Position numbers and translations under genes: made by a program
From: Octopus vulgaris
Taxonomy: Eukaryota
DNA: 64,000 nucleotides
Direction: 5' to 3'
NCBI GenBank assembly: GCA_951406725.2
Contig: OX597823.1
Coordinates: 71,610,001 to 71,674,000 of the forward strand
Shown here: positions 4,330 through 41,400 of the stretch, piece after piece
Layout: every line of letters starts with the position of its first letter
Position numbering within the stretch: position 1 is the stretch's first letter
Notes under the pieces: model-generated
The model's database searches: none
The model's input: the letters and a program-made list of their open reading frames with translations, nothing else
What the model was told of the DNA's origin: nothing

Positions 4330-4363
<34 letters not shown>

Positions 4364-7300: not shown

Positions 7301-10300
7301 CATCTTCAGTGAATCTATATCCTGCAAGTCTCTTCCTGTTCTGCTCATTCTATTTAAATAATAATGATAGTAATAATAAAGTTGAAGTGAAGATCAAATA
7401 TATATATATATATAAATTATGAATTAGAGATAAAACCACTATTATGCAACTCAAACAGTGATAGATATAAACCAATACATAAATAACAAATTTTATATAT
7501 ATATAAATTTTTTTTATTGTTTTTTAAATATATAACTTATAACTAGATCTCAAAAAGTATAAAAGGAATGATAAATATATAAGTAAAAACACTACGTACG
7601 TTTCATGGCTACAATTAAATTCAAATTAGAATTAAGTTTAAATTCAATTGAAATAAATTCAAATTAAGATTATAGTCAATCTTCAGGTTAATGATAATAG
7701 TTTGGAAAAATATGACCCTCTCCAATATATAACAATATCTGTTTCAACACACAATTTCACATCAAGTGTCTTTAAAAAAAATACATAATCATAATTTTTA
7801 TTTATTTCTTCAAAATTTCTGTTTAAATCTTTTAGCTTGAGATATTTTGGAAAGAAAGCTTTTCGATACCATTGCCACCCGTCACAGAATCACAAACAAT
7901 ATTTGAATATGTTGTGTCTGATAAAGGAATGTGGGAACATTGGTCTGAGAGGGTAAGTAAGTCAGGCTTGCAAGAACAATATTTCATCTTATTCAACATA
8001 AGACATATTTTCAGAAGCATATGAAGCATGCATGATAGAACTATATGTTAAAGTTTATCCAAAGAGGAACTTGAGCTCAGACCCTAATGACAATATCAAT
8101 GAGGTGAAAAGCTTCATAAGATAAACATAACAGTCAGTTGAATATAACTAACTCTGGTACTGGTATTTATTTAATGATCTTAGAACAGAAGTGGAATGAC
8201 ATACTCTGGCAAAATCTAAGCACAGCAAAATGAGTGCTCCACTTGTGATGACTAAACATCTATTCTGGAATAGGTACCACTTTTTCACATGATTAAAAAT
8301 AATACATAATGAAGTGGTGGAATTAACCAAGATACTAGAGTTATGTTGAATTTATTGCAGCATTTAATTTCATCTTCCTACATCTTATTCAATCAAATTC
8401 AATCTTTTTTGAATAACAGTTATGTAATACAGTTCTATATTTAAGAGATAAGGAATTATGTGCATTATTTACATTATTTACATTATTTACATTCAATGGA
8501 TATTTGTCCTCATCTTGTTTGTTGTTAACAAGTTTCGGCTGATATACTCTCCAGCCTTCTTCGTGTGTCTTGGGGAAATTTTGAATCTCAGTTCTCATTC
8601 CTAAGGTATTTTCGATGTTATTATTATTATTATTATTGTTATTGTTCAACTCACTGCTTGGAATCAAGCTCGGAATCTTGGAGTTAGTAGCCCATGCTCT
8701 TAACCACTACGCCACATATAATGGTCTGTTAAGCAACAACTGCCCCAAAAGTATACTATCCACTCCAATTATGAAGAAGAGTGAGGATGGGACCAATAAA
8801 CTCTCCACAGTCTGTCTACGTTGTGTCAAAGGCCTCTCCGAAAAGATACAAATGATATGCGGCCCATATGACACCAGGACAGTATTCAAGAGTAATACAA
8901 CACTTTCCAAATATCTCCTTCGAGTAAAACCACCAATAGAGGAGGATATGACCAAAGACTGCGTGTACTCCATCCCATGCAGCTGTGGTAGGTTATACAA
9001 AGGTAAAACATGCCGCACCCTCAAAATAAGAGTAGACCAACATTGCAAAGCTGTGACATGAGGAGATATTGATAAGTTGGGTATAGCTGATCATGTATGG
9101 AAAAATAGAGACCACCTCCCCCTGTGGGGTGAAGTTCAAATAATAGACAGAGAACACTACGGGAAAATAAGAACACTAAAAGAAGCAGCACATATGCTAG
9201 GACACAACAACCTCCTAAGCAGACCGAGTGCAGTTATGAAGGAAGGATAGAAAAAATATTAGATTTATAAGCCCTAAAATTCACTTAATAATTGCCCACG
9301 AGCATATGGCATAGTGGTTAAGAGCACAGGCTACTAACCCCAAGATTCTGAATTTGATTCCAAGCAGTGACCTGAACAACAACAACAACAACATTGAAAA
9401 TACCTTTGGAATGAAAACCCAGGTTTGAAATTTCCCCAAGACACCTGAAGAAAGCTGGAGGGTATATCAGCCGAAATGTGTTAACAACAAACAAATATCC
9501 GTTGAATGTAATATGAGGACAAATATCCATTGAATGTAAATAATGTAAATAAGGAACAGTTATGTAGTCATTATGTAGATCAACATAAATTCAGACTTTT
9601 GATGTCCCTCTTTGTAGGTTTTAGTGGAATATACTGTAGGAATTCTTAAATTCTTTATAACCAACCATGGCTTCATCAATGGAAACTTTCCTGTATAGAT
9701 TATATAAGTAAGAAAAACTACACTAGATAAAGTTTTGTTCCTGTCTAAAAATAGTTCTTTGAGTTTTATCAATAAAACAAACTTACGTTTAAATTTTTTT
9801 ATCCAAGTTCGATAATTAGTACAAGTCTCTGGTTCAGCATGGATCCTAATATATTGTTGAACATATTTCCATTAAAATGTCAAAGGGTTTCCTCTCATCT
9901 TCATTTATGACTCATCATTCATGAACATGATATTCCATTTATCTTCTGCTTATTTGTTTTTTCAGCTTATAATTCTCCATTCTCCATAAATATATAGTGT
10001 AAAGTATATTTGAAAATACTATTTCTGTGTTCTGTCTGGGATTTGATTAAATCAGGAATCCTAATCAGTAGGCTACATGACTAGGACAATTGACAAAAAG
10101 GGAAATGGTCAAAAGATATAGGGCTTCAGTATTGAATATAGAAATAAGCCATGCTAGACCAAACAGTGTTGCCTAGCAATTAGGCATAGCACCAAACAGC
10201 CACCCAACTAGGGTCACTGGTGATGCCATGGGAAGCAGCATGGTGGATGTGTAATCTCAATAAAAAAGTCCTCCACTGACTAATGGCAACATTTACATAA

Positions 10301-13300
10301 TGCTGGACAGAGGTCAATGACCACAGTCATCAAGTTTCTGTTATATTACTGTTAGCATTTGTAGACTCAGTGACCATGGATGCTATTACCCAATAAAAAT
10401 GTAATCCAAGTCACTTCAACCGGATGATATCTGTATAATTTCTGGCCCTGGCACCAGTCCTGAAAACTGGATGGATATATTTTTATTACAAACTTCACTA
10501 AATGGTGTCATTTTCTTTCTAAAATGTTTCTCTTCAGTTTCATTTTTATTAATACTCTCAACATCAGAAATCCTTTCTACTATAGGCTCAAGGCCTGAAA
10601 TTTTGCGGGAGGGAGCCAGTCGATTTGATGAATCCCAGTATGCAACTGGTACTTAATTTATCGACCCCAAAAGGATGAAAGATAAAGTTGACCTCAACGG
10701 AATTTGAACTCAGAACATACCGAAATACTGCTAAGCATTTCGTCCAGTGTGCTAACGATTCTGCCAGCTCACCATGTGTTATTGTAACAGTAGAAGCAAA
10801 CTTTCCTGTATGATAGTTACAAGGTGGTATCAAAAGGTTCCTGAATTAGTTCTGTAGCATAGCACTGACTTTCATGAGGCAGTGTGCCGAGTGACATAGT
10901 TATGTTTACTTTGCAAGTTGTGAAATTTGTGTTATTATGATCGTGTGTATGCTGAAGTCTATGATTTTATGTCATGGACAAAATGTTGGGACAAAGAGCC
11001 AACATGAAATTTTGTGTTAAACTTAGGAAGTCTCTGCAGAGACATTGAGCATGCTTCAACAAGCTTATGGCGATGAGGCAATGGGCTGTACACAATGTTT
11101 TAAGTGGCACAGGTGCTTCAAAAGTAGAAGAACATCTCTGGAAGATGATGAGTGGTCTGGAAGACCTACCATGAGCATCATCTATGGAAATGTGGTATTG
11201 TGTATTGAGAATTTGCTCCCCAGGGCCAGACTGTCAATTAAGGGTTCTACTGTGACGTTTTGAAGCATTTGAGGGAAGACATTTGACAAAAGTGATTGGG
11301 TCTGTGGAGCATGAAGAATTTGGTTCTTTATGGTGACAACGCATCATCACTGAGCTCTCCTCGCTTGTGAGTTTCTCGCCAAAAACAACATGGTATCACT
11401 TCTACACTTGTCCTATTGGCCAGATTTAGCCCCTGTGCACTTCCATCTCTTCTCCAAGATGAAAATTACAGCTTAAAGGTCGCCATTTTAACACTGTTGT
11501 CAAGATTCAGATTCTAAAAGTGGCAGAAATGCTGGAATAGTATACTGTTGTTCAAGGTGACTATTTCAAAGGAGATGATGTTAAAACTTAGGTAAATAAG
11601 TTATTTTTTATTAAATATAACTAGTTCGGGAACCTTTTGATACTACCTCGTAGGAACACTAGACAATCTCAATGAAATATTATAAATGCTTGAACAATTA
11701 CAGCAGATAAAATTTGTTGTACTATTCTGAACTGGGTTTTGTTGATGTTTGTGAAGGCGCATGGCTCAGTGGTTAGAGCGTCGAGCTTACGATCGTGAGG
11801 TTGTGAGCTCGAATCCCGGACCGGGCTGCATGTTGTGTTCTCGAGCAAGGCACTTTATTTCACGTTGCTCCAGTTCACTCTGCTGTAGAAATGAGTTGCG
11901 ACGTCACTGGTGCCAAGCTGTATCGACCTTTGTCTTTCCCTTGGTTAACACTGGTGGCGTGGAGAGGGGAGGCTGGTATGCATGGGCGACTGCTGGCCTT
12001 CCATAAACAACCTTGCCCGGACTTGTGTCTAGGAGGGTAACTTTCTAGGTGCAATCCCATGGTCATTCATGACCGAAGGGGGTCTTTACCCTTTTTTTTT
12101 GTTGATGTTTGATAATTTAATAATTTCTATTCTCCACTGTCAAGTCTACATGTTATGTTGGGTTGTTTTGTTTTTGATAGATAACTCAATACGTATACCC
12201 TAAGGATTCTACTCCAGACTACACAACAATCTTAATTCCAAACATTGACAATGTACGCACTGATTTCCTTATCCATTTGGTTGCAAAGCAATGTAAAGCA
12301 GTTTTATTGATTGGAGAACAGGTAAGAATGAATCAATTATACTTTTATCTGTATTTACCACACTGACTCCTTTATCATACTGATACATACACTTTAATGC
12401 ACTGATTTGTATCACATATTGTACCTTTACATTGTTGTAATTTTACATAAAATTATGAGCTACGGGTGTAAGGGATTAGCTCTGAGATTTGAAAGTGATA
12501 TAAGATGAATTCATCCTGGCTTGTATGCTAGTTTTATTGTCATTATTATTTAATACAAAAGAGATCATTATTATCATTTAGTTGAAGTTCTACTGTGATG
12601 TTTTGAATCATTTGAGAGAGGACATTTGACGAAAGAGACTGGGTTTGTGGAGCATGAAGAATTTGGTTCTTCCTGATGAAAATGCATCATCACTGAGCTC
12701 TCCAGATAGTATTTGAGAACAGATTTATGGTTTTAATATAATGCTTGTATGATAACAGGAAAAAACTGTATCTTTAGGAAAATAACAAAAACATAAAGCT
12801 GAATTATCAATTTAGTAATTTCATCCAATAAAACCACCATAAGCATCAATAACTGACTCTGTGCAGGGTCGAAATCATTTACAAGCTCAGATTAAGTGGT
12901 CCTTGTTTGTATTGGACACAACTTGAACTATGGCAGCTTTCGAAGAATCTTTGATGCTATGGGCGTGCCCATTGACATTTTTCTCAATGATGCCCTATAA
13001 ATAGTAGTCCAGTTGATTGAGATCTATAGAATTAGGAGGCTAAGTGTAGGGGGGTGATGTAATCATGCAAATTGTTGGCCATCCATTCTTGTGTCATTTG
13101 AGCCTTGTGTGATGGTGCAGAATCTTAAGACCTTCCATTGCATACGCTGTTGACCCAAGGTTTAACAACTTTATCCAGAACCTCAATATATGCAGCAGCA
13201 TTCATCCTAAGGCCTTGTGGAAAAAAAGTGAGGAGGCATCACATATCCTTCATTGCTTAACAACACCCAAAACCATGAAACTTGCAGGAAATTTTGTTTG

Positions 13301-15802
13301 CATTACTCTTGGAACCTCAGAAGGGTCTGCACATAGCCATCTGTCATTTCTTCTGTTAGCTTTCTGGTCCTGTTCAAAGTTTTTCTCATCTGAGAAAAAC
13401 CAAATCTCACCATCTTCTAGTGGATATTTAAGTTTGTTCAGAAGTCGTTTGGATCTGATTAAACAGTTTTCTTTTTTTTTTTCTGGCATGAATTGACCTC
13501 TCCTCATCGTGTAAGATTTGTTTCTGATGTCTTCGTGCACAACATTTCTGATTGTTTTTTTCTGACACACAAAATTTTTTTGCAATTGACCTCATTGATT
13601 TTTCTGGATTATCTTCAATGTTTTGCTAAACTTCCTAAATAAATTCAAGTGTCCTGATAGCATCAGAGTGTTGGGAATGTTTTTCATGCTTTGATACCAG
13701 TAATACATCTCCATCCTCTTTCTCTAACTCATACCGAATCTTGTGAACAAAAGATCTTACAAAATTTCTAAATCACCATGCTCAGCTTTCAAAGCCACAA
13801 TCACAGCATGCCTTTTCATTTCATCATCATCATCATCATCGTTTAACGTCCGCTTTCCATGCTAGCATGGGTTGGACGATTTTGACTGAGGGCTGGCGAA
13901 CCAGATGGCTGCACCAGACTCCCATCTTGATCTAGCAGAGTTTCTACAGCTGGATGCCCTTCCTAACGTCAACCACTCCGAGAGTGTAGTGGGTGCTTTT
14001 ACATGCCACCGACATGGGGGCCAGTCAGGCAGTACCGGCAATGACCTTGCTCAAATGTTTTTACAAGTGCCAGTAAGGCGACGCTGGTAACAATCATTAG
14101 TAAAAATAGAACCTGTCCTTGTCATTTTCTGAAACTGAAGTTCAATAAAAATTATTAAAATAAAATGACTAAAAATGCATGTGTCCTCAAATATTGTCCA
14201 CACTCTGTATATTATATGTTATGTGTCGTTATATATATCCTTTATTTGTGCATAACACTCTAGTGTTTGAATCTGTTGAATTTATTCCAAATTGTAAGAT
14301 TTATACTTTCTAAATCATTCAGCTCAGTTGAAGTTGTTCTGTTTATGTTTTGCATTTGTCTCATAAAGTTTAACGAAACAGTTTGAAGTTTTATCCAACG
14401 GTGTTTCTACTCTCTTGACATTGTTAGTTGTTCTGTTTATCTTTTATATTTGAAAGTTGATTCTGCATTTCTTTATTTTATCTCCATGTAATAAAATGCA
14501 ATGCTGTTTTAGTTTTTCTCATCTGGCATTTTTGCATAACATTAAGGTAAAAAAAAGCACTTGTAGCTCATATGATCGTAATGATGCACAGCAGTCAATG
14601 TATTGTTTGCAACCATCTCTGCAGAGAGATCATGTGTGATCCATTTTCGAAACTTTGTCACTTTACCAATTCTTTTCAGTTTGTGAAGAATAGCTGTATG
14701 GCTCACATTGAAGCCGGTGCTTAGTTTCTAAACTGTAACAGCTGGGTTTGCTTCAGTGGTAACTTTCAATATATCAGGATTTAATACCCTTGGATGCCTC
14801 TCTTGATTCATCCAACAGGTGGTAGTCTTCATTCCTGACTCATGGAAACCATCTTCTGCATGTTCTGTCAGTCACTATGCCATCACCGTAAGTCTTTTGG
14901 AGTGATTTTGCTGCTACACCTGCACTGTTGCCTTATTGTAATTCCTAAAGAATAAAGTGATGAATATGTTCTTTGATCGGAGTCAACATGGGTCCAATAC
15001 AACAACTTCACTTATGATACAATTGACGAAATGTGAAAGAAAATGAAAGAAAATTATATACAAACGATTTTGCCATATTTTAAAACAGAACTGAGAAGTT
15101 AAACACTTTTAGATTTAAGTAGATATTTACTTAAAAGGAAACAAAACAGAATTTCTTTACTACCTGATATATATACATATATATTTATATATGATGAATA
15201 AAAAATATATGCATATATATTTTTCTATATATATATATATAACATAAGAGGGATCAGCCATCTGAATGTGGCTAGGGTCAGGGCGGGGTGGTGGGGGTGT
15301 TACTGATGCATTTAGCCCCAGGCGAACATCGACGTCACCAGAAGAGCTGACACCATCTCGGTGTCCTTGCCAGCCAGCAAAGGGAGATCAACCTCCCCGA
15401 AGATACGGATACTACACACGGACCGGTTTCGAGGTTACTGCCTCTTGTCAACGTATGGTAAGCACCGCTCTTCGTTGAGGGACTTCCTCTGCAGGCTGGA
15501 TATATATAGATTTTCACAGTAACCACAGTCACTGGCGTAGAAAATCTGTTCGAAAACAATAATAAATCTCTGGGCGAGATATAAACAGTAACTGCTCTAT
15601 AACATAAGAGGGATCAGCCATCCTTATAATATAGGCATGCACGTATATATATTATTATTATAGAAACACAGAAAAAAATGGAGATAAGATTAATAAAAAT
15701 TTATTAATACATTGACCAGACATACAATTGTTTAATAAATTATTCATGCATTAATAGATATATTAATAAATTTTTATTAATCTTATCTCCATCTTCTCTC
15801 TT

Positions 15803-15838
<36 letters not shown>

Positions 15839-15991
15839 CGTGTGTGTGTGTGTGTGTCATTATTCAGCTTTATTTCAAGATTTCTTACCAATAGAGAAAG
15901 AGCTGGTTTCTAACTGAGATCCAAGGCTCCTTCATTGGAATTTCAACAACATCAACAGTGTATTTTTTGTATGTATGTATGTATGTATGTA

Positions 15992-16035
<44 letters not shown>

Positions 16036-19000: not shown

Positions 19001-22000
19001 ATTTCTATAAACAAATGCACTCGCTCTTGTTTAGATTCAGTGATCAGAAGGTAATTTTGACTAAAGAGATGCAACAAGGTTGAAACACCGCAGTGTCTCA
19101 CAGTCACCTTATGTCAATGAATCCAGAAGGTGTTCTCTGAAGAGAAAATACTACAGCAGTTAGCATAATTACGATTGATTCTGCGAGATATATTAAGAAT
19201 AAATATGTCATTGTGTGTGTTTATCTATCTGTCTGTCAGTCTGTCCATCCATCCATCCATCCGTCCGTCCATCCGTCCGTCCGTCCGTCCACCCACCTTT
19301 TTGTACTGAAGGCAGTGTCATTAAATACTGAGTTGACATTATTTCTTGCCAAGAATGTAGTTAATTACTGTGATTCTAAATGGCCAAATGAAATGGTATA
19401 CAGTATTGTTGTACTCCTTTTCTTCTGAGTTGAAGTTCTGCTAAGTTCAACTTTGCATTTCATCCTTCTAGCATTGACAAAATAAGGAACTGCCAAGCTC
19501 TGATGTTGTTCTTTCAAAATACCTGGTCTTAAAATTATTGTTTACTTGATGTGATGAATTTCCAGGAATAGTAAAAAGTTTGATTAAATGGCAAACATCA
19601 TTTAGTTCGCTCCTTCTAGTTCTGACTTCAAATCATGCCAACGTTGACTTTACTGTTCATGCTGCGAAAGACATTTATTTAATTAACTATCAAGTAATAC
19701 AATAAATTTCATTCTATTTATTCTTTTCTTACCAGGGAACAATTCTCTTTACTCTATTTAAAATATTTCAGCAGCTGATTTTACTGATATTTATTCTGGT
19801 TGATTATTAAAACCTTGAACAAAGTATTTACTGAGATTAAGTTTAAAGTAGCAATTATTTTGAATTAGACCAGAATCTAGTCTTTGATAGAGATGAAATA
19901 GTGCTGTAGTTTGTATTGTAATAATCAGCTTTTGTGTTAGTTTTTTTTTTGTTTGTTTTTGGGGTTTTTCTTTCTTTTTTTTTTCAAAATTAATAAGCTG
20001 TGAAGTTGAGGCTGATATTGTTTAACAGTTCTTTTGCATGATATTGAGCTGGTAGTTTGTTTGAGGAGGTTATGCATTGTCCCCAGAATTGGTGACTTAA
20101 TAAAACAAAATGAAGGATGTCCAGTTCTATCATAAGCTGGTGTTAAGAATACTAATGTTTCAGGTGATGTCCTTCAAAAGAACAGATCTGTCTGCAAGAA
20201 CTGAGCTAAATATAAGAATAGAGCAGTAGCGAGATTAATTTCATAATAGCATGTTTTAGATTTAAATAATCGAAAGAAGGCTCCATGCATAAGTCTCTAA
20301 TGATTGTTTGTGTGACCAATCATGATGCTGAAATACTTTGTCAAGTCAGGCATTTGGATTTACATGGGATACTGAGCTCATATCCAATCGTATTGCACAA
20401 TAGAGCACCAAAAGTGGCAGATTAAAAATGCTCGTTTGAGCCCCTTTTTGTTAATGAATAACATGAGGTTTTACATTTTAATTCAGAGGGGAGATTTTGT
20501 TTTCAAGAAGCTAAGTTACACTAATTTTGTTCCTGCTGAAGCACATGTAACCAAGTTTGACTGAGTTGAAAAGCGAACTATGTATGATGTCCTACAGATG
20601 GCAGTTTTTGTGGTGTATTAATCTGGTTCACTGTATAGTTTTATTTAACAGAAGAATAAAGTGTTGCTGTTAATTGAAAGCTCGTTTCAGGTATTATTTC
20701 CACTGTTTTATATGCAACTCATGAGAAGCAAAGATTTGTAATAAGAGGGCCAGAGACACATCCTTCCAGCTTAAGAGCTAACTATAAAAACAGGATTAAT
20801 TAGATGATGTAAATTCAATCAATTTTCACCTAGAATTGTTATGGATTATACAACAAGCATAAAATGGGTAAATTTCTTTAATTTTAGCAAGATGTTTAGC
20901 ATAATCTCTGACAGAATGAGACAAAAGCAGAAGATATTGGTCATGTAATGGTTGAGTACAACTATGGAACTTTGATAGAATTTAGAGTAAAAAATATTTT
21001 ATTTTGTGTCAGTTCATATATTGTGTCATCTAATAATGCACAATAGTAAAACTTGAGAAATATTATGTGGTATTAAATGCGAGGTTCTTGGAAGGTCTCA
21101 CCAACGATTGCTAAGATGAACTAAAGAACATTAAAAATTCCTTTTTCAGCGTACTATGGAAAGTTATGTGGAAAAAAGAATGGGTACAACATATGGCCCC
21201 CCAGCTGGAAAAAGACTCACTATATTTATTGATGACATCAATATGCCAATTATCAATGAGTGGGGTGATCAGGTAATATAAAATTTTAATGTTTTATAAT
21301 AACTCTTGCCCTGTGTTCAGAGTGTACTTCTGACTATTTTACATGTCACTTTTTTTTTCTTTATTTATAAACATATTGTTCGGTCATTTAAACACTATAA
21401 ATTTCAACCAATCTGTTTTTATCAAACAAAATAAATCATTTAATTCTTCTTTTCCCTATTCTGCAATTGTTGTGATTGATTTATGTATTTGAACAAAATA
21501 ATTTGAAATTTTTTTAATGAATTAAAAAAACATTCATCACGAAACTGTAGCATTAAATAAATTTTTTAATAAGCGTTTCAAATCATTAACTTTACATAGC
21601 TCAACACATAATCAACTCATCTCAAGCAATATTCAATTGAAATTAATGTGTTGATGTATATCAGGCAACATTGTTAGATTTTAGTATGGTAACAGAGTGA
21701 TGCCCTTAGTAGGATAGGTAGGGAAGAAGATGGGAGAAAATAAAATACGATAAAATAAAATAGGAAAAATACAATTAAAGGAGGAAAATGAAATACAATA
21801 AAATAAAGTAAAACAATATGAAATATAACAAAAGTAGTAGATTAAAAGTTTAATTTTTTGCATTAGATTTATGGATATAGAAATATTTTAAAAGTTCACA
21901 AATATAAAGTCTTTAATGGTTTGTGGACATAAAAGTTTTAATAGTTTAAGGATGTATAAAAGGTTTATGGATATACAAGTAGGTATAAAAGTAGATAGGA

Positions 22001-23398
22001 GGATAAATAGACAGAGAGGCCAATTGGTAGGTGGATATATAACTAGATAGATGGATTGACAGGTATATATATATATATATATATATAGAAAGACAGACAT
22101 ACAGACAGACAGATTGTTCAGTAGGTAGAGAGAAAGATAGACTGTTCATCCTGTATATGGCATGTAACCTGGGGTGAATCTTGTTGATGAATGTTATAGC
22201 TTATTTAGTGAGCGCTTTTGAATTGATTCTTCATCAGACTTTTTAACCTTTACTTTTGAGTCTTTTTTGATGTTGGTTAGTTTTACATTCTTTCATGATT
22301 AAAGATCCTGGAAGCAGTAGATGTGTTTCCATGGTTCCAGCTCATTTCAGTGGTTCAGGTTAGATGCTTACTTCTTAATAAAGTGTGCCTCTATAATCCT
22401 GAGGCTAATTGCATCCTTCCCCACTTGCTATTGTGCAGGTGGAGTAATCCCCATCACAGTGTTGGTGGTATTGGAACATAGTATTGGACAATATGGCCGT
22501 GTAGAGATGTTCCTTCACACTAAGGTGAAGATGTGTTTTCTGGCCAATGGTATGCCAGGCGAGCTGGCAGAAACGTTAGCATGCTGGGCGAAATGCTTAG
22601 CGGTATTTCGTCTGCCACAACATTCTGAGTTCAAATTCCGCCAAGGTCGACTTTGCCTTTCATCCTTTCGGGGTCGATTAAATAAGTACCAGTTACACAC
22701 TGGGGTCGATATAATCGACTTAATCCGTTTATCTGTCCGTGTTTGTCCCCTCTATGTTTATCCCCTTGTGGGTAGTAAAGAAATAGATATGCATGCCACA
22801 GCAGAAAATAAGGATTAAAAACGTTTGATGAAGCATCACCAATTCAAAAGTGCTCAGTAAATAAGATATAACACCTACCAACAAAGCTCACACCAGGTCA
22901 CACACCATGCATAGGGTAAACTATCTATCATTCTATCTACTACTGAACTATCTATCTGTCATCTTTTGCTCAATCTATCTGTCTACCTAGCTATCTCCCT
23001 ATCTAACTGACTGTTTATCTACTCCCTATATACTTGTGTATCCATAAACCTGTTATACATCCTTAAAGTTATAAACTTTTATATCCACAAATCTTTAAGG
23101 CTTTTATATTTTTCTTTTATTCTTTTATTTTTTCTTTGTTTTAGTCACTTGACTGTGGCCATGCTGAAGCACTGCCTTGAAGGGTTTTAGTCGATCAAAT
23201 CAATCCCAGGACTTATTTCTTGAGCCTAGTACTGATTCTATCAGTCTCTTTCGCCAAATCACTAAGTTACAGGGATATAAACACAACAACATTGGTTGTC
23301 AAGCAGTGATAGGGGAGGTCAAACACAGACACAAAGACACACACACAGATATATACATACACATATATACATACATACATATATACATACACACACAT

Positions 23399-23448
<50 letters not shown>

Positions 23449-23605: not shown

Positions 23606-23647
<42 letters not shown>

Positions 23648-23811: not shown

Positions 23812-23844
<33 letters not shown>

Positions 23845-26288
23845 AAGTTAATCCAAACAAGAAAACAAAAAAACACAACAACGCGAAGATGTGGAACAAA
23901 TATAGTATTATTGGACGCTCAGGAAAGAAGGAAAGAAGGAGGGTTTAACGTTTCGAGCGGAGCACTTCGTCGGAAACATAGGAGAAGGAAAGATCCAGAG
24001 AAGGGAAGACAGAGGAAAAAAAAATCGTCAATGGTACACATGAGGTCACATTTTGAAAATATATATGTAGGCTTCTTTCACTTTCGTCTGCCGAATTCAC
24101 TCACAAGGCTTTGGTCAGCCCTAGGCTATAGTAGAAGGCACTTGCCCAAGGTGTCATGCAGTGGGACTGAACCCAGAGCCATGTGGTAGGGAAGCAAGCT
24201 TCTTACCTCACAGCTGCAGCTGTGCCTATTTGTGAACTTTTAAAAAATGTTTCTATCCATGTACCTATTACAGAAAATTAAACCTCCTTCTACTCCACTA
24301 CTTTTTATTATATCTTATATTGTTTTACTTTATTTTATTTTGTCTTATTTTTTTTCTCTCATCTTCCTCCCTATCTGTCCTACTAACAATATTACACTGT
24401 TATCATACTAGAATAATGTGAAATTATGACATTGTTACAATTTTCATAATGACTACTCTCAGAGTGGTTGGCGTTAGGAAGGGCATCCAGCTGCAGAAAC
24501 TCTGCCAGATCAAGATTGGAGCCTGGTGCAGCCATCTGGTTCGCCAGCTCTCAGTCTAAATCGTCCAACCCATGCTAGCATGGAAAGCGGACGTTAAACG
24601 ACGATGATGATGATGAATCTTCATATAACTAACTTTGTTTCAAAAAGTTATAGTATTAATAACAGCTACTAATACTAGACAAATAGAAAATTATCTCCTC
24701 ACATCTCCAAAATAGGGAGTATCCACCATGTGCATAAATGCATTTAATCCTTAAAGTAGTTCTCTACTTAAGCTGCTAGGACAGCAGCAACATCTACAAC
24801 AAATCACACTCAGCTGTCTTGATAAAGGGAATGGGATATCTGCATCCAGGATAATGTATTCCTGGATATAATCTCTATATATATAAAGCTGAAGTTGTCT
24901 GTGTATGGCAGGTTTGGTAGCCTTTAACTAACACTATCTCCTCTGAGACCCTGCGGTGCAAGTTGACCAAAATTGAGAGTATGATAGAAGACGGCTTGCT
25001 CTTCCTTCCGTAGAAGAAAAATTCAAATCGGACAATGTTAACACCAAAAATTATTTACATCAAAAAGGTGCTTTTTTTCTATGAAAATCCCTACTTTTTA
25101 CGATTTTTTGACTGCTGTGTCACCTTTTTTTGGTGTATTTCAACCAAAAAAACCTTCACTTAAAGAGAATAACAAGCTACATAATGCAAAATTTTTACTT
25201 TTCAAAGATTCCAATTCTAAAGGGTCGAAACAAACCTGAGCAATGCTGGGCAATACTGCTAGTATAACCTTAAACACAAGTTAGCAATCATTGAGGCTAA
25301 CCATTAATCATGCTGAGATCACTTCAGTATCATAGTTTACAAACACATTGCAACTATGCGTAAGTCTAACTAATTATAAATACGTTTTTAATGTGTTTTT
25401 TTTCTTTGATTTAATGCAAGTTTATCCACCAAATTTATTTTGAAATTTTAATTGATCAGTTGAAATCAGTTTTTGGTCAGATATCAACATTTTTACCCTA
25501 CACTCGCTGGTAAATCTAAGCAGGATTTACAAAGAATCTCTGGAGACCATGCTCTTTTGGTCAAATGACTTCAACTGAAGTAGGAATAGCTTCCTTTGGA
25601 AGATTTGTTATATAGGCTTTGTACATGTGCTTGTAGATAAGTATTTTCTATAGAAATTCCTATTTAGACTAAATATAAGCTTACTCAATTCAATTGTAGT
25701 TAGACTTCCATGTGAGAAATGACTCTTTGATTTTAAAATTGGGCTGAGAATTGTTAGATAAGTTAAACATGGCAGTGGCTTTAAGTTAATGCTCTGTATT
25801 AAGCACATGCTCTTGACTTTCATTCTACTAAATCTTCCAATATGGTTTGTCTGTGTAAAAGACACATAATTTTTCCTGCTTTTAATGTATTTGATTGTTA
25901 ATGCAATCTACATTAACTTTCATAGTGGCTTGCATTAAAAAGGATACCACTATGCTAGCATGGGGAAAATGGATATAAGCAATTTGTTATGATTTAGATA
26001 TCTTTATTATTGCTTGCTTGCAAATCCATTTTATTAGAATATTCATTCTAATGTCTGTTTGCATTGCAATAGAGTATGGAGTATAACCGAAATAGGAATA
26101 GCTCAAATGGTGTGATGTATTGATATACATTCAAGTAAGACTATATACAATTTTATTATGTGTAAGCAAGGCACACGTCATGGGTGAATATTCAATGAAG
26201 ACAGAAGGAATTAAAATAAAATGTCAACAAAAGAGCTTATCACCCCAAGACAATATGTTAAAATATTTTGACAACAAAATGATTTACT

Positions 26289-26327
<39 letters not shown>

Positions 26328-26514: not shown

Positions 26515-26555
<41 letters not shown>

Positions 26556-29500
26556 ATTATAATTAGGGTTCAGCTAACTGCTTCACCACATACCGAAATT
26601 AGAAAAAGGAGTTAGAAATTCCTTTCCTGCTACTATAAGAATCTCCATGATGGTAAACATACTTTTTTATGAAGGTAAAGAGAAAAACAATGAATCAACA
26701 TGACCAGGATTAATTATATACGCGTTTTGAGATTAAAGTAATTTGAATTTTACTTACTTCTCTCTTCAGTATAATATTTCCCATTTTTTAATAAAATTTG
26801 AAAGTATTATACTGAAGAGAGAAGTAAGTAAAATTCAAATTGCTTTAATCTCAAAACGCATATATAATTAATCCTGGTCATGTTGATTCATTGTTTTTCT
26901 CTTTACCTTCGTAAAAAAAGTATGTTTACTGTCATGGAGATTCTTATAGTAGCAGGAAACGAATTTAAAACCCATTTTTCTGCGCTGGCAAACTTTACAC
27001 ATATCTGTTGTACCACCAATTACAATCTAATTTAAATCTTGTCTATGAGATCCAACATCCAGAGAATCTGATTTTATTTATACTAATATATCAATTAAGT
27101 ACAAACAGTTAAGGGAACTATTTTGCTCTCTTTGCTAACAATAATAATCATGAGAAAATCCTCAGGGTTAACTTGACATACCATACTTTATATGTTGAAG
27201 GATACCAGCTAATTTAGGACCTTATATTTTATGCCATGCACAAGGGAAGTATTTTGCTGTCCTTGATAATAATAATCATGGAAAATCCTCAGATTGACTT
27301 GACATACCACACTATATATGTTGAAGGGTACCAGCTAATTTAGGACCTTATATTTTGTTCTGAAAAAGATTTTTAAAAATATAATGTATAAACTTACTTT
27401 TGATGAAGCAGTGCTTATAGCACTCTCTTGTTATGAAACAAGGAGATTTTAATAGCTGCCTGATGTTCATTCTGTTAATATTCACTTTGAAATCTTTTAG
27501 ATTAGTTTTTGTTGGAATGACAATAAATATTAATGAAAATCATGGAAATAAGGATAGATCCAGAAGCAACAACCAGGTAATGTGTTTGGGGTGGCACACT
27601 GGAAAGACAAGGACAAATGCATTAAATGAGTTTAGGCACAAACAGATAACAGTTTGCAAATTCAACAGAACAAATAATAATACTGTAATAGCGTAAACAA
27701 AGGAAGTCCATGCACAAGTGGTTATTGAGTATTATTGAATGACAATCTGCATGCAGAAGATATTTTATTTCTTTATGGTATAAGAAAGATGGGGAAGCAC
27801 AAAAACATAAGCAATTAGTCTTTTTCAAATAAAATCTGTCACTCAGTTTAATTCTTGGTAGTAGTTATTTCATATGGTCTATAAATGGCTTTGAGAGAAC
27901 TTTGAGTATCACAACTTTTACTCCCTAGTCATGGGAGTATCACTGATCTCAAAAGGTTGCTCAAGCAATTAACCCAATTAATTTTATTGAATAATTCAGA
28001 ATTTATTTTTTAGGATCAGAATGTAAGTGTTCCAAATGTAATCTTAGCTGAGTTGTGTCTATCATTAGCAGTTATATTGGTCTGGGTTATTTTCTGGCTC
28101 TGAAAACAAACCCAGTATTCTTGATGCATGCATAACTATGTAACGAAAATATAATTAATGTAATTATAATATTTCTAATATAGAAGTTGGAATCTGTTTT
28201 TGGTATTTATAGGTCACAAATGAAATTACTCGGCAAATGATAGAAATGAATGGATTCTATAACCTTGAAAAACCTGGAGAATTTACAACAATTACTGATA
28301 TCCAGTTGTTGGCTGCAATGATTCATCCTGGAGGAGGCCGAAATGATATTCCTCAGAGACTCAAACGTCAGTTCTCTATCTTTAACTGTACTCTGCCTTC
28401 AAACAATTCTGTTGATCAAATTTTTCAAACTATTGGTTGTGGACATTTTTGCAAGGTACAGACATTTTACAACACTTTTAAATGCTTTGTATTTGTTGCC
28501 AAACTTTTTTCCTCTGACTATCTTTAAATTTAGTAAATAGAAAAGTTCTCCTCTTAAGTATTAACACTCACCACTACTTTTCTAACAGCAAAATATATTT
28601 AACCCTTTTGTTACTGTATTTATTTTGAGATGCTCTGTGTTTCTTTCAATTACTTTTAGATATAACAAAGAATTTAGTAAAATAGCTTAGTTATCATTTA
28701 GCTAGTGTTAGGAACATAAATTGTGACTAAGGTTTGGTGGAAGATTTTAATTCAAAACTCATGAAAACAAGACATTTGTACTCAGAGCCAGAGCCAGTTT
28801 CAGCCAGGTTGGTAACAAAAGGGTTAATGGGTTGCTTTCTGTTTTTTTTTCCTTTTACTTTCTGACGTTTTATTCATTTTTGCTGAGATACAATTTACTA
28901 GTTTCCATGGATTCCAGTTTTTTTTGTTTTATTTTAAATACATATTAATATATCATCATTTTGTGTCCGTTTTCCATGCTGGCATGGGTTAGACAATTTG
29001 ATAGGAACTAGAAAGCTGGAGAGCTGTACCAGGCTTCAGTCTGATTTGACATGATCTCTACAGCTGGATACCCTTCCTAACACTAACCAATCCAAGAGTA
29101 TAGTGGGTGCCTGTTACACATCACCAGCACTGGCTATGACTATGATTTCACTTGGCTTGACATGTCTTTTCAAGTACAGCAAATTGCCAAAGGTCTCAAG
29201 CGCTTGTCATTACCTCCAAAGATCATGCTTCACCACCTCATGCCATGTCTTCCTGGTCTACCTCTTCCACAAATTCCCACTACAGTTAGAGATCAGCACT
29301 TCTTTACACAGCTGTCCTCATCATGCATATGCATCACAACACCATGCCAGCCAGTTTTCTCTCTTGCCCACTAAATCTGATGCCCCTTATGCCCAATATA
29401 TCTCTCAAGATGCTTACACTCTCTTGTAGATGTACACTGATATTGCTCATCCGGTGAAGCATACTAGCTTCATTCTTTCAAGCTTTCACATGTCCTCTGC

Positions 29501-31106: not shown

Positions 31107-31151
<45 letters not shown>

Positions 31152-31786
31152 ATAAATCTCAGAGCGAGTTATAAACAGTAGCGGTAACACATCGTGACGC
31201 ATATTTGCCATTTGAATATGGCTAACACCTAAGGGTGGATGCTACTGTAGTTTGTAGCCCCAGGAAGATATCTCCTCCAGCTGGCTATAGACACACTATC
31301 TGTGCCCTCTCAATATCTGTGAAGGGAAGTCATGCTCCCCGTCTTCAACTCATGATACACACGGACTCGAGTTTCAAGGTGTTTACCTGTCATCCACGCT
31401 TAGGGGTTAGCCATATTCAAATGGCAAATATGCGTCACGATGTGTTACCGCTACTGTTTATAACTCGCTCTGAGATTTATCATTGTTTGATTTCACTTTT
31501 TCAATATCAGTGTCAATCAACACTGGAAAAAGTATATGTATTTGTGAAGGGAGCTGACTTCTCGTCGACAACCATGATTGTCACACGCTGGTGATAGGTA
31601 AACACCTTGAAACTCGAGTCCGTGTGTATCATGAGTTGAAGACGGGGAGGATGACTTCCCTTCACAGATACTGAGAGGGCACAGATAGTGTTTCTATAGC
31701 CAGCTGGAGGAGATATCTTCCTGGGGCTACAAACTACAGTAGCATCCACCCTTAGGGGTTAACCATATTCAAATGGCAAATATGCG

Positions 31787-31831
<45 letters not shown>

Positions 31832-34800: not shown

Positions 34801-35328
34801 AAAGAAAAGAGTAAATGGAAGTGACATTAGCTCTGGAAGCAACTCAGAATAAAAACATAGCTACAGGGAAGGGATGACTTTTTAGTTTATCAAAGACAAT
34901 CACTTAACAGACTCAAATAATCCATTATATGTCGTAATATGGCTGATGATAGGAATAGCACCAGCCGTAAAATATATACCAAAGACATGACATACGTAAC
35001 AAAGACGGCCAGTTTTCTCATTTGCTAAGAGTGTGCCAGATGATGGACTACGGTGAATGGGGAGATAATTTGAGATTCATCCAACCCTTTCCAACAAAGG
35101 AAAATAATCATAAAATAATGATGATATTTACTCTTTTACTTGTTTCAGTCATTTGACTGTGGCCATGCTGGAGCACCGCCTTTAGTCGAGCAAATCAACC
35201 CCAGGACTTATTCTTTGTAAGCCTAGTACTTATTCTATTGGTCTTTTTGCCGAACCACTAAGTTACGGGGACGGAAACACACCACCATCTGTTGTCAAGC
35301 AATGTTAAGGGGACAAACACAGACACAA

Positions 35329-35373
<45 letters not shown>

Positions 35374-38300
35374 CATATATACAACAGGCTTCTTTCAGTT
35401 TCCGTCTACCAAATCTACTCACAAGGCTTTGGTTGGCCCGAGGCTATTGTAAAAGACACTTGCCCAAGGTGCCATGCAGTGGGACTGAACCCAGAACCAT
35501 GTGGTTGGTAAGTAAGCTACTTATCACACAGTCACTCCCGCGCTGTATATTGTTGACAACAATGAGAATGGCGCATCTAAAGCTACATTATTCAATGTGT
35601 GTGTATGTGTGTGTGTGTGCGCGCGTGTGTTTAAGATGGGGCTTTGACAGAAACCTGTCTGCTATTTCTAGCAGATAGAATGTCTGCCCTGGTGATTGTA
35701 ATCCTCAACAGATGAATGAATTTATAGTAGCAGTCTGATTATATGTTTATATGTTTTGCATCTGAGAACTGATTGGTAGGTTGGCTGAAATAATGACTTA
35801 CTTATTATAACAGATGTTGTATCTCTTCTTTACTTGGTTATATTTTCTGTCTGAATATTTCAGGGTATGTTGAAAAGTGAAGCAGAGGTTATCAACTCAG
35901 CAGAAAGTATTGTTTGTCTTTGGAAACATGAATGCACTAGAGTGTTGGTTGACCGCTTCATCAATGTAGACGATAAGAATTGGTTTGAGAAAGTATCTAA
36001 GGAGGTAATACCCATATCATTGATAAGTGATTTGTATACTTTTATTTTATATTGCAATTGGCAAGCAGCAACACCATCGATTACAAGTTTCTTGTGAGTT
36101 GTCACTGATTCTATAAATGTCCTACAATGAGAGTACCAGGGGAATCTCTGTATAACTTTGTGGAAAACAAATATCAAAAGAAGTAATGCAATTTTTTGGA
36201 GTAGGAGTGATTCTGTGATTTATGTCTTTTGCTAGTATATATTAGTGAAAAATATATACCAACACATACGCACCTGCATCATCATAATTAACCATCATCA
36301 TTGTTTTTAAATTCATTTTTCCATGGTGGTATGAGTTAGATGCATACACATACACACACACATGCATGCATAGCTTTTGTCTACAAGTTTCACTCTCAAA
36401 ACATTGGGCAGTGCAGAGCTATGTTAACAACACTTGTCCTAGGTATCACAAAGTAGGATCAAATCCCAAGCCATGTAGTTTCAAAACAAATTCTTTAACC
36501 ATAGAGCTATGCCTGCTATAGAGTTTCTTTATTTTAAAAATACAACAATTAGCTGTTAATTATTGTTTATTCATTTGAATAATTTTGAATAATTCATTTT
36601 AGCTTATTTTAATTTATCTAACTGGCTGAAAGTAGGTGCCAGTCCACACTTTCATTCACAGACTTTGTCCACATTGGCAAATGCAAAAAGTAACTATCCA
36701 AGTGGATATCATATTGTGGTATGAGATCTGAAGAATTGACTTTCTGTCCACTGTTGGTGTTTCGTTCTGTAATTTGACACTGCACACCTAATTCTTTGTT
36801 TCCTTAATGTTGCCATTATTTAATGTAGAGAGCATTAAGAAGCCAACTTGGAATAGGTATGCAGTAAAGAAAAAATTAAACTATCAGTAAATGACTAATG
36901 CATTTTCTAACATGTTTTGGTTGCTATTCTGACTCCATCAGCAAAGCATCGACTTCGCTGTACTTGCCAAATTAGTAATGAAAGGATCATTTAGAAAACA
37001 TACTTGATTGTACGCACATACTGAAGGAGGGAAATCAAAGAAAGTGCTAAGTAGTCTCAGTTTCACGAAGTTGGTATAAGACTGGACTTGCTGGAAAACT
37101 GAAAATAATATTTATTCATTGATTCATATTGATTTTTCTCAATTTTGGCTAGAGCTAGTCACTATGTATAATACAGCTAAGTTTTCTTAACAATTCTGTT
37201 CTGTCTTTATCTTTCTCTCTCTCTCTCACTCTTTCTTTATATGTGTGGGTATTTTGTCCTATCTCCTCTTCAACCAAAACAACTTACAACTACCCCCACT
37301 GCCTTAGCTATCAACCTATCCACCCCGCCTTCTCTCTCTCTCTATCCACTTCCCTCTGTTTTCTCTCATACACACTTCTACATACCTCAGTACTTCCCCT
37401 CCACTGCCAACTCACCATCATTATTTGATTCTGTCCCTCCAACCCCAACCATTTAGCACTAACTGCTGCCTTGACTATCAACTTACCTCCCCCATTCTGT
37501 CCACCTACCTTCTCTCATGCCTTTCTATATACCTTAGCAATCACCCTTCCATGCCAACCTAACTACTTTCTTTGAATTCCCCCTTAGCCACACTATAAGC
37601 ATTTAATAATTGCCCTCCCCTTTCTCACTGTCTCAACTTCCCATAGTTCTATAGCCATTATCCCTAAACTGTGACACCTTTTCATAAACCAGCTATAACT
37701 GTCTACCCTTCAATTACTCCCTATCCCATCCCTGTCACTCATCTCTCAACTCCCCACCTCTACTCCTACCTCTCTCAATACCCTGATTGTTAACCCTCTC
37801 CTCCACCCCATCTTTGTGAACTAACTTTCTTATCCCACTTCACCCTTCCCTGCCTCAACACCCCCACTGAGTCGCCTACTTCCTCCCTCCAGTACTGCCT
37901 GCTCTCCACATTTAAACAGTTCACTTTTAAAAGTCTCTGCATCATGATCTGAAATGTAAGATATTCCCTACCCTGATGATGGAGACTCAATTCATCCAAT
38001 ATTTATTTGCTTCCATTACAGGCTGCATTTTTTGGTAAACTACATCTATCACCATTATAATGGATCCCCAAACCCCAGAAACAGCTGTCAAACCTGTAAC
38101 ACCTTACTTCATCCTCTTTAATTTTCTCTGTTGTTCCAATACATAAATATCTATGTATTTATACTTAAATATTCATCTTCCGAAAATCTTCAGTCTTTGC
38201 TTTCTTTCTATTTGCATGTATATGTATATATACAAACCCAAACTGTTTTATTTAATTTGTTTATCCACATAATTGCCTCCGTATCTGCTCATCACCTGCA

Positions 38301-38412
38301 TTCCTCTTATAGCCACTCTGAATTGGTCCTTTATGAAAACACAAGAGTTTAAGTTCAAATCATTTGAGGGCTACTAAGTGTTTTTTCTATCAAGAATCTT
38401 TGTATCCCATCT

Positions 38413-38452
<40 letters not shown>

Positions 38453-41400
38453 CAATAATAAATCCTCTATGGGTCAGCCACATTTTGCTGGCAAATATTG
38501 ACTTCCGTGCCAGTGGCACGTAAAAAGCACCAACCAATCATGGCTGCTGGCACCCGTGCCAGTGGCACGTAAAAAGCACCCACTACACTCACGGAGTGGT
38601 TGGCATTAGGAAGGGCATCCAGCTGTAGAAAAACTGCCAGATTAGACTGGAACCTGGTGCAGTCTCCTGGCTTTCCAGGCCCCAGTCGAACCGTCCAACC
38701 CATGCTAGCACGGAAAATGGACGTTAAATGATGATATTGATGATGATGATGATATGTGTATATATATATATATATAATCGGGAAGTATATTTGCCACCAA
38801 AATGTGTGGCCGCATTTGTATCATTGGTGATTTTCTTTCTCCGTCTTCCCTTCTTTGGACTCTTTCTATATTTCTGATGAAGAGCTCTGCTCAAAACGTG
38901 AAATCCTCTTTTCTTTCCTTTCCTGAGCTTCCAATAGCACTGTACTTATTCCACATCCGTGTGCTGTTGTTTTTTCTTGCTTGTTCATGTTTGGATTAAC
39001 TATATATATATTTATATTACATATATATAAGCTAATCTATTTATTTAAAAACCAATGGTCCATATCCTTGGGGAAATTATTTCATTCTTAATAACCCAAA
39101 CTGCATATAAATATTGGATCATCCCATAAATGATGCATGAACTAAAAGTTGGAGGGGGATGGGGTAAAGTACTTGCATCAACTTGCTATACAAAGCAGGT
39201 AGTAATTTTACCTTGTGCTTATTCTTTGTGCAAGTTTTGAAGTTCGATTTTAACAGTTATTTTTTCAAAGCTATAATGGAAGTGACAAAGGAGCATATTC
39301 TGCATATTTTGCTTTATGAGTTCAATAAAGCAACAACGAAACGGAAAGTGTGAGGAATATTAATGCAGTATATGGGGATTGAACAATAAGAGTAAGCCAG
39401 TATCAATGGTGGTTCCAGAAATTCAGAGCTGGACACACAGCCTAAAAGACAAGCCTCATCCTGAAGACCTGTAGAGCTCAACAGGGATGTCCTGCAAACC
39501 TTGGTAGAAAAGCTTGGATTTAGTCATTTAACCAGTCATCAACACGTGAACTAGAAGGAAAACAACCATCTTTGGTTTCAAGATGAAAGATGTTCTTCCA
39601 TCAGGATAATGCTCGGCCACATACAGCAAGGATGACATTCCAAAAGCTGGTGCAGTTTGAATGGGGAACGATGCCCAACCCACCATCTTCACCAGACATT
39701 GCTCCATCTGATTATCATTTATTTCACAGTCTTCAAAATCATTTGGATGGAAATTCTGTAGATGAGGTCAGCACAGTAGTGGAGGAGTATTTTTCACCAT
39801 GGACCAGTGTATTTTTGAAGGGGGACCTTGCAAGTCTACCAGATAGATGGAAGTGCATTGTAGAAAAGGGAGGAGAGTATATTTTAGATTAAAAAATAAC
39901 TTTGTCTTAATTTTGAAAAATAAAAAAAGTATTAAAAAAAACGCATTATTCATGGGATGACCCAGTGCAATCAGAATTAGTTACAGTTCACCATTGTAAG
40001 CATTGTATATATGCAGACAGGGCTGAATACAGTATTTTGGTTACTGACAGTGCTCTGCTTGAAGTATTCCATCAAAAATACCATTAAAATTATTCAAATG
40101 TATCTTTTTGTTTTTTTAGACTAATCAGATAAAAAGTACGTTTTTCAAGATACTAGTTTTATCTTGGTAATATGCAGTCATTCTCTAATTTGTTAGTTGC
40201 AATAACCCTTTGGACACCAATCCCGACCAGGCTGCCCCTACTTTTATGATGTAAACTTCCTGTTTAAGGTGATCTAAATTAAAACCTTCCTTCAAGATCT
40301 TATATAAATTTATGTTCCAGACATCAGCTTAATAATCCTGTCTACTATAGGCACAGGGCCTGAAATTTTGGGGTGCAGGGGACTCGCTGATTACATCGAT
40401 CCAGTGTTTCACTTGTTCTTAATTTATCGACCCCTAAAGGGTGAAAGGCAAAGTTGACCTTGGCGGAATTTGAACTCAGAACGTAAAGATAGATGAAATA
40501 GATATCAGCTTAATAATGCCACAGTTATTTTACATTTTACTAAACTCTTCATTATTTCCAAAATTATTGAACCAATAGCAGCATATTTCAACAGAAATAT
40601 AATAATAAAAGGATTTCTTTGTTCTGTGAATATTAACATTTTTGTTGACACGTAAAAAGCACCCACTACACTCTTGGAGTGGTTGGCGTTAGGAAGGGCA
40701 TCCAGCCGTAGAAACATTGCCAGATCAGACTGGGCCTGGTGCAGCCTTCTGGCTTCCCAGATCCCAGTTGAACCGTCCAACCCATGCTAGCATGGAAAGC
40801 GGACGGTAAACAATGATGATGATGATGTATTGTCTGTTTAGGTAAAATCAAATAAAAACATCTTTGTGATTATTTCATTAGGTGGCAAAAGAGTATTTTG
40901 GTCCCGGATTGGCTGCAACGATGAAAGCGGAGCCTTATTTTGTAAATTTTCTCCGTGATCCGCCAGAAGCCACAGGTATGTAATAAGTTACATTTTATTG
41001 GCAATTTATTTTATTCAGCGTTTTGTTTTCTGTGTGTTTGATTGATGGTCAGTGCAATCTAGGAAGAGGATGTCTCTAAACTTGTTACTGTTATTGAAGA
41101 CTGAATTAAAATCAAATAGAAAATCTGTGTTGTTAAAGGCTGACCACACACATAAGTATTTATGCGAAAACTTTTCCTCAAATTATTTTTATTCAAATGT
41201 CCATCTTGTATCTTTAAACACCATCCTCATCTCTGAGATCCCTTATCTAAGCTAAAAATAAATGAGTCTATATATTAACTACTTAGGCATCTATTTGAAG
41301 AAATATATGTTAGCAACAGAGGCTGTATCAATACTAGGAGGTAATATTTACCCCACTTAAAAATGGATGTTCTGTTGAAACAAACTTTACTGTGGTAGAT

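Follow-up and report, generated by a model that had tools for sequence, protein, structure and literature searches.

In metazoan Penelope-like elements (PLEs), the pseudo-long terminal repeats (pLTRs) carry hammerhead ribozymes with an extra nucleotide and a palindromic helix III (Cervera and de la Pena 2014, PMC4209133; this and the other papers cited here are represented by the passages that concern such motifs). PLE insertions are known to include an inverted copy and a 30–40-bp tail and to target TA (Craig et al. 2021, PMC8557442), and hammerheads also occur in retrozymes, which measure 170–400 nt (PMC7229834). A palindromic stem III was already noted for several ribozymes in a supplementary legend of PMC3088659. 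Here we analyze a stretch of 64,000 nucleotides from Octopus vulgaris (GenBank assembly GCA_951406725.2, contig OX597823.1, positions 71,610,001 to 71,674,000 of the forward strand; hereafter the window) that lies in an axonemal dynein heavy chain gene and for which a preliminary description had listed about nine intronic hammerhead loci from several repeat families. On the basis of the sequence, these motifs, most of them damaged, lie in eight intronic insertions that were probably left by PLEs and by short non-coding units borrowing PLE enzymes. Two kinds would be represented: minimal-type hammerheads in the pLTR 3′ ends of PLEs, and canonical hammerheads at the tip of a long rod in units of a retrozyme-like lineage that lack an open reading frame (ORF).

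The inventory comprises eight insertions (A, B, C, D, E, F, G and I) of seven families, with 12 motif copies. Family E is represented by two insertions, E and I, which are 76% alike; insertion A and a further claimed locus at 37973 are each single copies in the window, in which a profile search recovered no further copies of any family. The cores, stem II arms and palindromes previously named were found in place, and three copies were added to that list, at 8527–8569 (minus strand), at 22822–22858 (plus strand) and, truncated, within 31191–31392 (minus strand). A (TA)5 or longer tract lies within 250 nt downstream of 7 of the 8 insertions and 8 of the 12 copies, compared with 7.7% of background positions, which bears out the proposed link to (TA)n; the inverted pLTR pairs are likewise real, at B, D, F and G.

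Direct support for PLE origin comes from insertions B and D. In B, an inverted pLTR copy (8474–8717, minus strand, 78% to 9304–9552) with a decayed motif at 8527–8569 is followed by a broken C-terminal endonuclease region of GIY-YIG type (8720–9229, plus strand) and by the 3′ pLTR (9304–9552, plus strand), whose motif at 9440–9482 has an extra A after A9. The endonuclease remnant matches P0002 (73%; an Octopus sinensis record and its best named relative) and P0003 (61%), the latter carrying RVT_1 besides the endonuclease region. Insertion D consists of a pLTR with a minimal-type motif (22207–22240, minus strand; an additional A behind A9, A at the position of G12, and AGCGCT as the strand of helix III), a frameshifted C-terminal endonuclease part of the same type (22365–22539, minus strand), abutting a SINE-like (short interspersed element) repeat at 22558–22785, and an inverted pLTR copy (22805–23111, plus strand, 68% to 21900–22256) with a decayed motif at 22822–22858. 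The D remnant was matched by tblastn with P0126 at an E-value of 3e-11 within the window, with 50–63% identity across the frameshift. P0126 is one of five matches of the D fragment (E 6e-5) and itself aligns with the endonuclease region of P0003 (E 1e-4); the other four, P0124, P0125, P0127 and P0128, were multi-stretch matches and were discarded. A direct alignment of the D fragment with P0003 was not obtained, and Pfam returned no GIY-YIG match for the B remnant or P0126; the GIY-YIG label is one we presume from the similarity to P0003 and P0126 together with known motifs. No reverse transcriptase sequence is left in the window. The endonuclease remnants thus directly support the assignment of B and D as 3′ ends of PLEs. 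An origin from Naiads, which are described as lacking canonical hammerheads and as having an N-terminal endonuclease (PMC8557442), was rejected for both because their endonuclease stands at the 3′ end. By eye, the beginning of the B pLTR (9304–9400 and 8620–8717) also looks tRNA-like at its 5′ side; an (AAC/AAT)n tract comes next, both being upstream of the hammerhead motif.

Four insertions, A, E, F and I, preserve no ORF remnant that we could find. The motif of A (7588–7692, minus strand) has an intact core, a 75-nt helix II region and the helix III strand ACGTACGT, and scores three defects, with U·U at the base of helix II and a weak helix I. That of E (23943–23977, minus strand) is of minimal type; an extra A follows A9, C stands in place of U4 and the helix III strand is ACGT, in an element of about 23847–24056 that ends in (TA)n; the palindrome AACGTT given for it previously takes in A14 and N17, so the strand from A15.1 to U16.1 is the shorter ACGT. 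Its relative I (38870–38904, plus strand; G12 read as A, N17 = G) belongs to an element of about 38780–39000 between (TA)n tracts. Insertion F is an inverted pair of 92% likeness (26560–26981) with motifs at 26713–26775 (minus strand; ACGCGT, G12 read as A) and 26806–26868 (plus strand; G12 read as A, palindrome broken). Neither an inverted pair nor a partial tandem or tail was found at A and E. For two further insertions beyond B and D, the PLE link is supported by architecture, namely inverted pairs, one with a 40-nt tail; at 7588, 23943 and 38874, we infer it.

The features of the motifs are those of the published pLTR hammerheads. Type I layout, a G10.1–C11.1 pair, a palindromic 15.2–16.2 region and a short helix I are common to both, and the extra base found after position 9 and before 10.1 is shared with B, D, E and I (PMC4209133). 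In the window, the inverted B copy and insertions D, E and I combine an extra A after A9 with G10.1–C11.1; in F the G–C pair stands without the extra base, and A is damaged at that site. A palindromic 15.1–16.1 strand occurs in A, D, E, F and I; in the inverted copies of D and F it is broken, and both B copies lack it because only one nucleotide separates GAAA from helix I. The hammerhead described as decayed at 9445 is thus present as a decayed motif, without a palindrome there or in its partner. Further likenesses to the published elements are the many families per genome, the opposite-strand pairs 100–700 bp apart and the preponderance of single truncated copies; differences are the long helix II regions of A and F (75 and 34 nt) and the damage to nearly all window copies (PMC4209133). 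The architecture also agrees with that reported for PLE insertions (PMC8557442), which show 5′ truncation, partial tandems, an inverted copy, a tail and, in Naiad and Neptune, (TA)n targets: inverted pairs are found at B, D, F and G, a partial tandem with a tail in G and a partial tandem in C. Octopus is not named as a host in the part of PMC4209133 covered here, and its supplements may list molluscan motifs.

The preliminary description had related the motifs to PLE-associated minimal hammerheads, which agrees with the endonuclease remnants at B and D and fails for two loci, 15415 and 31582, where the motifs are canonical and lie in retrozyme-like units. Unit C (15241–15622, minus strand) comprises 360 ORF-less nucleotides (15241–15600) and a 22-nt terminal redundancy (15601–15622), its last 22 nt being repeated 360 nt upstream, and ends in (TA)n. 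Unit G (31391–31790, plus strand) comprises 352 ORF-less nucleotides (31439–31790) preceded by a redundancy of 48 nt, its last 48 nt being repeated 352 nt upstream, and ends in (TA)n as well; it is joined by an inverted, 5′-truncated arm of 97% likeness (31150–31392, minus strand), whose start lies within the hammerhead and which terminates with a tail of about 40 nt and (TA)n. None of six other elements tested shows such a repeat period. The two units align end to end with 221 of 340 columns identical (65%; score 249, shuffled maximum 132), have no similarity to PLE proteins, and each carry one type I hammerhead with a 6-bp helix I, a 4-bp helix II and a 6-nt loop. In both, this hammerhead caps a rod, whose predicted fold has a z-score of −5.85 (reached by 0 of 100 shuffles) in one unit and −3.53 (1 of 100) in the other, although the arms of the rod have only 19 of 51 and 27 of 54 columns in common. 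The C hammerhead (15415–15457, minus strand; U3–A8 core, helix II with G10.1–C11.1, helix III strand ACCGGT) is the only defect-free copy of the 12, counting U3–A8 as accepted, and is antisense to dynein; the U3–A8 covariant is found in nature and active in vitro (PMC4209133, PMC3088659). The G hammerhead (31582–31626, plus strand; helix III strand ACTCGAGT) is canonical in shape, with A6 read as G and U·U at the base of helix II in the window copy. Insertion C is separated from a (TA)n tract by a self-complementary AT-rich element (15644–15830, 78%), and a second such element is found at 52019–52261 (66%).

On this evidence, C and G likely represent a retrozyme-like lineage of ORF-less 350–360-nt units. 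They resemble the animal non-LTR retrozymes in length (350–390 nt in mussel), in lacking an ORF, in their canonical type I hammerhead (PMC7229834, 10.64898/2026.07.22.740005), in being strongly self-paired, in copies of more than unit length and in occurring alongside PLEs, and dispersed monomers are known among those retrozymes too; they differ as monomers with short redundancies at (TA)n, G having in addition an inverted arm and a tail of PLE style. The helix III of C, one pair with a palindromic tetraloop, is like that of the dimer-dependent hammerhead HHR_Amex1 of newt and axolotl, and the two pairs with a tetraloop in G are like HHR_Amex2 and invertebrate motifs; newt and axolotl also combine two related families with different helix III in one genome, as C and G do here (PMC7229834). 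C departs from the Amex hammerheads in carrying U3–A8, and the passages concerned in that paper contain nothing on hetero-dimer cleavage. As monomers, ACTCGAGT and ACGTACGT are each able to form a 2-bp helix III capped by a tetraloop, as reported for the efficiently monomer-cleaving invertebrate retrozymes (PMC7229834, PMC7761336). The general picture of hammerheads in PLE pLTRs is thus already known, and what is likely a retrozyme lineage was not found described for cephalopods: no paper on cephalopod retrozymes turned up in the literature searched, the word "cephalopod" is absent from the main text of PMC7229834, and the main text of the O. vulgaris repeat annotation (PMC13282606), in which a PLE expansion is reported, contains none of "ribozyme", "hammerhead" and "retrozyme".

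Four of 24 listed sequencing runs, none of the runs being on record as RNA, were aligned to the G unit at 80% likeness. Matching contigs numbered 3920 and 1379 in two DNA runs from two organisms, and 379 and 28 in two runs guessed to be RNA, whose contigs cannot reveal ends, strand or circles. At core position 6, A accounts for 124561 of 124759 of the depth in run X2 (99.8%, 66 contigs) and for all depth in the other three runs; the G found at that position is private to the window copy, and the family consensus keeps the core intact. None of the 40 variants shown (4 more being hidden) falls within 31609–31624, and none touches GAAA, the palindrome, UC or the four bases with which helix I begins, while loop II varies at 44–46% and the base of helix II varies too. 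Depth at the core positions is 1–6 × 10^5, compared with 24–60 for seven of the eight single contigs listed. Summed contig depth is not a copy number, being inflated by overlapping contigs, and it is therefore taken only to support a high-copy family on the order of thousands. Head-to-tail joints appear in six rows in X2 and in two in X22, one of the runs guessed to be RNA, and would be produced by partial tandems as well. A G–C variant of helix II that makes up 366 of 772 of the depth in X22 and 2% in X2 was not accepted as a sign of expression, since a single contig supplies it and the partner base on the 3′ side reaches 48% in X2. In all four runs, the 3′ block 31691–31762 has a depth far above that of the unit middle (up to 2.5 million in X2), which suggests that related families are numerous and that the units of some measure close to 298 nt.

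It is unlikely that C and G are instead rare, internally deleted by-products of ORF-bearing PLEs, formed by joining a pLTR to the 5′ end of the element. Their insertion pattern is indeed that of a PLE, depth in X2 is lower in the middle of G (96–214 thousand) than in the 5′ block (176–407 thousand) or the 3′ block, depth in run X12 falls to zero at 31523–31570, and no listed contig spans the unit. Against this, two units that are 35% apart have stayed colinear over their full length and kept the same rod; coverage in X2 extends to all 30 bins, and the proportion of contigs that continue into unlike sequence is 0 there and 0.01 in X12. Both DNA runs contain joints going back 298–299 nt, and hence in both organisms, and the hammerhead is canonical rather than minimal in shape.

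If C and G do form a lineage of their own, head-to-tail copies would be transcribed by read-through, one cleavage per unit would release a unit-length RNA, possibly circularised, a PLE reverse transcriptase would copy it into slightly more than one unit, and a PLE endonuclease would insert the copy at (TA)n, sometimes with an inverted 5′-truncated arm and a 40-nt tail. Helix III would stay self-complementary because its partner has to be either its own strand, as in a hairpin of the monomer, or the following copy of the unit on the same transcript, as in a cis dimer. Any palindrome meets that need, and families would therefore drift to different ones, with poor pairing between families as a by-product; after insertion, the cores would decay.

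The preliminary description had proposed that the palindrome of each family could act as a dimerisation code. Six different 15.1–16.1 strands are found across six lineages (ACGTACGT, ACCGGT, AGCGCT, ACGT, ACGCGT and ACTCGAGT), the sisters C and G differ, and the G family shows no palindrome variant among its variant rows. For the five strands of 6–8 nt, predicted homoduplexes (−7.5 to −10.7 kcal/mol) are stronger than cross pairs (−0.1 to −5.4), in which 2–4 of 6 or 5 of 8 pairs form in register, and heterodimers between families would mostly be disfavoured. Such a code is thus physically plausible on these models and likely a by-product rather than selected. That it was selected, the palindromes being kept different so that co-expressed families dimerise in trans only with their own kind, seems rather improbable. 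Any two different palindromes mismatch anyway, so orthogonality is expected without selection; ACGT pairs at least as well with the strands of A and F (−2.4 and −2.3) as with itself (−1.7) and has no self-preference; and the strands of 8 nt are able to close helix III in the monomer. Those dimers that have been published join tandem copies in cis and need no discrimination (PMC4209133, PMC7229834), and dimerisation in cis within tandem transcripts therefore explains the palindromes without a selected code. Catalytic hammerhead mutants, moreover, left insertion of a Poseidon element in vitro unaffected (PMC11167929). Among 120 metagenome loci, 8 that make up a complete type I motif also contain the strand ACTCGAGT; they are of three sequence types without BLAST similarity to C or G, which says little on any one genome and suggests a small recurrent repertoire of palindromes; the family-E pattern had no matches in metagenome and viral contigs. 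In one metagenome contig (L010/L011), a direct repeat of 662 nt includes a type I hammerhead that is complete and has the same ACTCGAGT helix III; this repeat is retrozyme-like and unrelated to C and G. Our literature search found no paper comparing cleavage of homo- and hetero-dimers, the likeliest place for it, Lunse et al. 2017, lying outside its scope.

A more ambitious reading would join these elements, with C and G as an active, TA-targeting, circular retrozyme lineage of octopuses, present in thousands of copies and mobilised by PLEs, in which the helix III palindrome (and, in C, the C3–G8 pair) switched when the two split and the palindromes were selected as an orthogonal self/non-self code; taken as a whole, we consider it doubtful in about the same measure as the selected code.

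Whether the motifs exceed chance was assessed with two descriptors. The first (the core plus helices I and II of 3 and 4 bp and a palindromic spacer of 2, 4 or 6 nt, with defects counted) gave 0, 1, 8 and 45 matches at up to 0, 1, 2 and 3 defects, compared with means of 0.01, 0.18, 2.8 and 29.1 in 100 local dinucleotide shuffles; at up to two defects the shuffles yielded 2.8 ± 1.9 and one of 100 reached 8. Six of these eight matches are loci named earlier, and 7588 scores three defects. The second descriptor, stricter and chosen after the loci were known, scores G10.1–C11.1 and accepts U3–A8, both features taken from PMC4209133; it gave 1, 3, 8 and 40 matches compared with means of 0, 0.06, 2.03 and 23.0, and 0 of 130 shuffles reached any of these numbers, including the three matches at up to one defect. 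When G or C was also demanded in the palindrome, five matches remained at up to two defects, compared with 0.49 (0 of 134 shuffles). Motif frequency within the window is thus above the dinucleotide-shuffled background.

The count of about nine loci is accordingly sustained as eight insertions, enriched over shuffles, with the locus claimed at 37973–38089 (plus strand) left out. Its exact core halves lie 98 nt apart, it forms no helix I (CTACC against AAACC), it has more than three defects under both descriptors, and its fold is no better than that of shuffles (z −0.84); a stemless exact core with GAAA, a palindrome and UH occurs in 73% of 200 shuffles with any spacer and in 7.5% with a 6-nt spacer. 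The locus is unsupported and was not accepted as a hammerhead. Immediately upstream of that core lies a long, strongly skewed C/T-rich stretch (37200–37950), which could be a decayed PLE 3′ region. Other CUGANGA sites, at 34943, 39461, 44378, 58719, 59804 and 62875, form no hammerhead by eye. The CTGATGA around 62704–62937 lies within one arm of a near-perfect 234-nt hairpin (82% self-complementary), which may be either MITE-like (miniature inverted-repeat transposable element) or an inverted PLE stump; the right half of a hammerhead was not seen there.

Several results weigh against the interpretation in terms of PLE ends and a retrozyme-like lineage. Rfam found no hammerhead among 120 window matches up to an E-value of 5, all of low-complexity microRNA type, nor among the 6 and 1 matches obtained with each retrozyme-like unit alone, and 7 of the 9 short motifs have z-scores above −1.8 when folded alone. 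Neither B copy leaves room for U16.1–N17, and the lack of ORF remnants at A, E, F and I has been mentioned, as has that of a contig spanning the whole G unit. Of the 44 rod pairs that C and G have in common when aligned by sequence, only 5 differ on both sides, and RNAalifold, with only these two sequences, gave 12 of 68 such pairs and did not recover the distal rod. The pair at the base of helix II in the G family is A–U in 67% of the X2 depth rather than G–C, which is present in other copies. Of the seven families, this is the one with a consensus; A, B, C, D, E/I and F rest on one or two window copies each. Even so, that the motifs are chance matches within AT-rich repeats is scarcely credible: it would suit the silence of Rfam, locus 37973 and the mostly background matches at three defects (45 against a mean of 29; 40 against 23), and is contradicted by the shuffles at up to one defect, by the occurrence of the motifs in paired repeat copies adjoining endonuclease remnants, and by the G family, whose consensus restores the core and for which chance is already refuted.

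Eleven of the 12 copies are damaged, with one to three or more defects, or truncated. G12 is read as A in five copies, each time after C11.1, which fits decay of methylated CpG, and the cores likely decay fastest at the C11.1–G12 CpG. Copies on the dynein strand are B, the inverted D, the inverted F, G and I, one per family and all damaged; no family is present twice on one strand, and 12 copies are too few to test selection on orientation. Judged by these defects, the window copies are likely inert in dynein pre-mRNA. The very large ribozyme load proposed for the genome holds in so far as one family, G, is high-copy; taken to mean working ribozymes, the load is overstated, given the damage to 11 of the 12 copies in the window. 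A density of one intact motif per 64 kb would be near that in coral, the genome of which is about 0.45 Gb. More than 6000 hammerhead motifs have been reported for coral and 126,247 for axolotl (PMC7229834), and the giant squid paper gives 235 Hammerhead_1 matches. Scaled from this one window, eight insertions per 64 kb would correspond to about 3 × 10^5 mostly dead loci in a genome of 2.8 Gb, a size derived from PMC13282606.

The host gene, an axonemal dynein heavy chain of DNAH5/8-like type, is represented by 16 exon-sized matches between 3865 and 63309 on the plus strand (Pfam AAA_7/AAA_8), in a window with 35% G+C and a CpG observed/expected ratio of 0.32. All 15 positions checked fall outside the dynein exon matches, and the loci are intronic as proposed. 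A degenerate (TACA)n microsatellite of about 900 nt (4076–4972) gives most of the spurious microRNA matches in Rfam. Three close inverted repeat pairs in dynein introns, 97–351/1513–1747 (76% alike), 5703–6102/6665–7056 (84%) and 23631–23791/24455–24616 (89%), could give double-stranded RNA within the pre-mRNA. Remnants of Tc1/mariner-type transposases lie at 678–1022, 13250–13591, 39587–39892, 42070–42369 and 47417–47872, with a Pfam match only for 678–1019 and 47417–47869; the stretches 42070–42369 and 47372–47671 are 93% identical to each other.

Within this setting, C and G, as sister units whose palindromes differ, offer a natural pair for comparing cleavage of homo- and hetero-dimers. 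Insertion G joins a retrozyme-like unit to the signature of a PLE, with an inverted truncated arm, a 40-nt tail and a TA target, and thus bears on the proposed mobilisation of animal retrozymes by PLEs.

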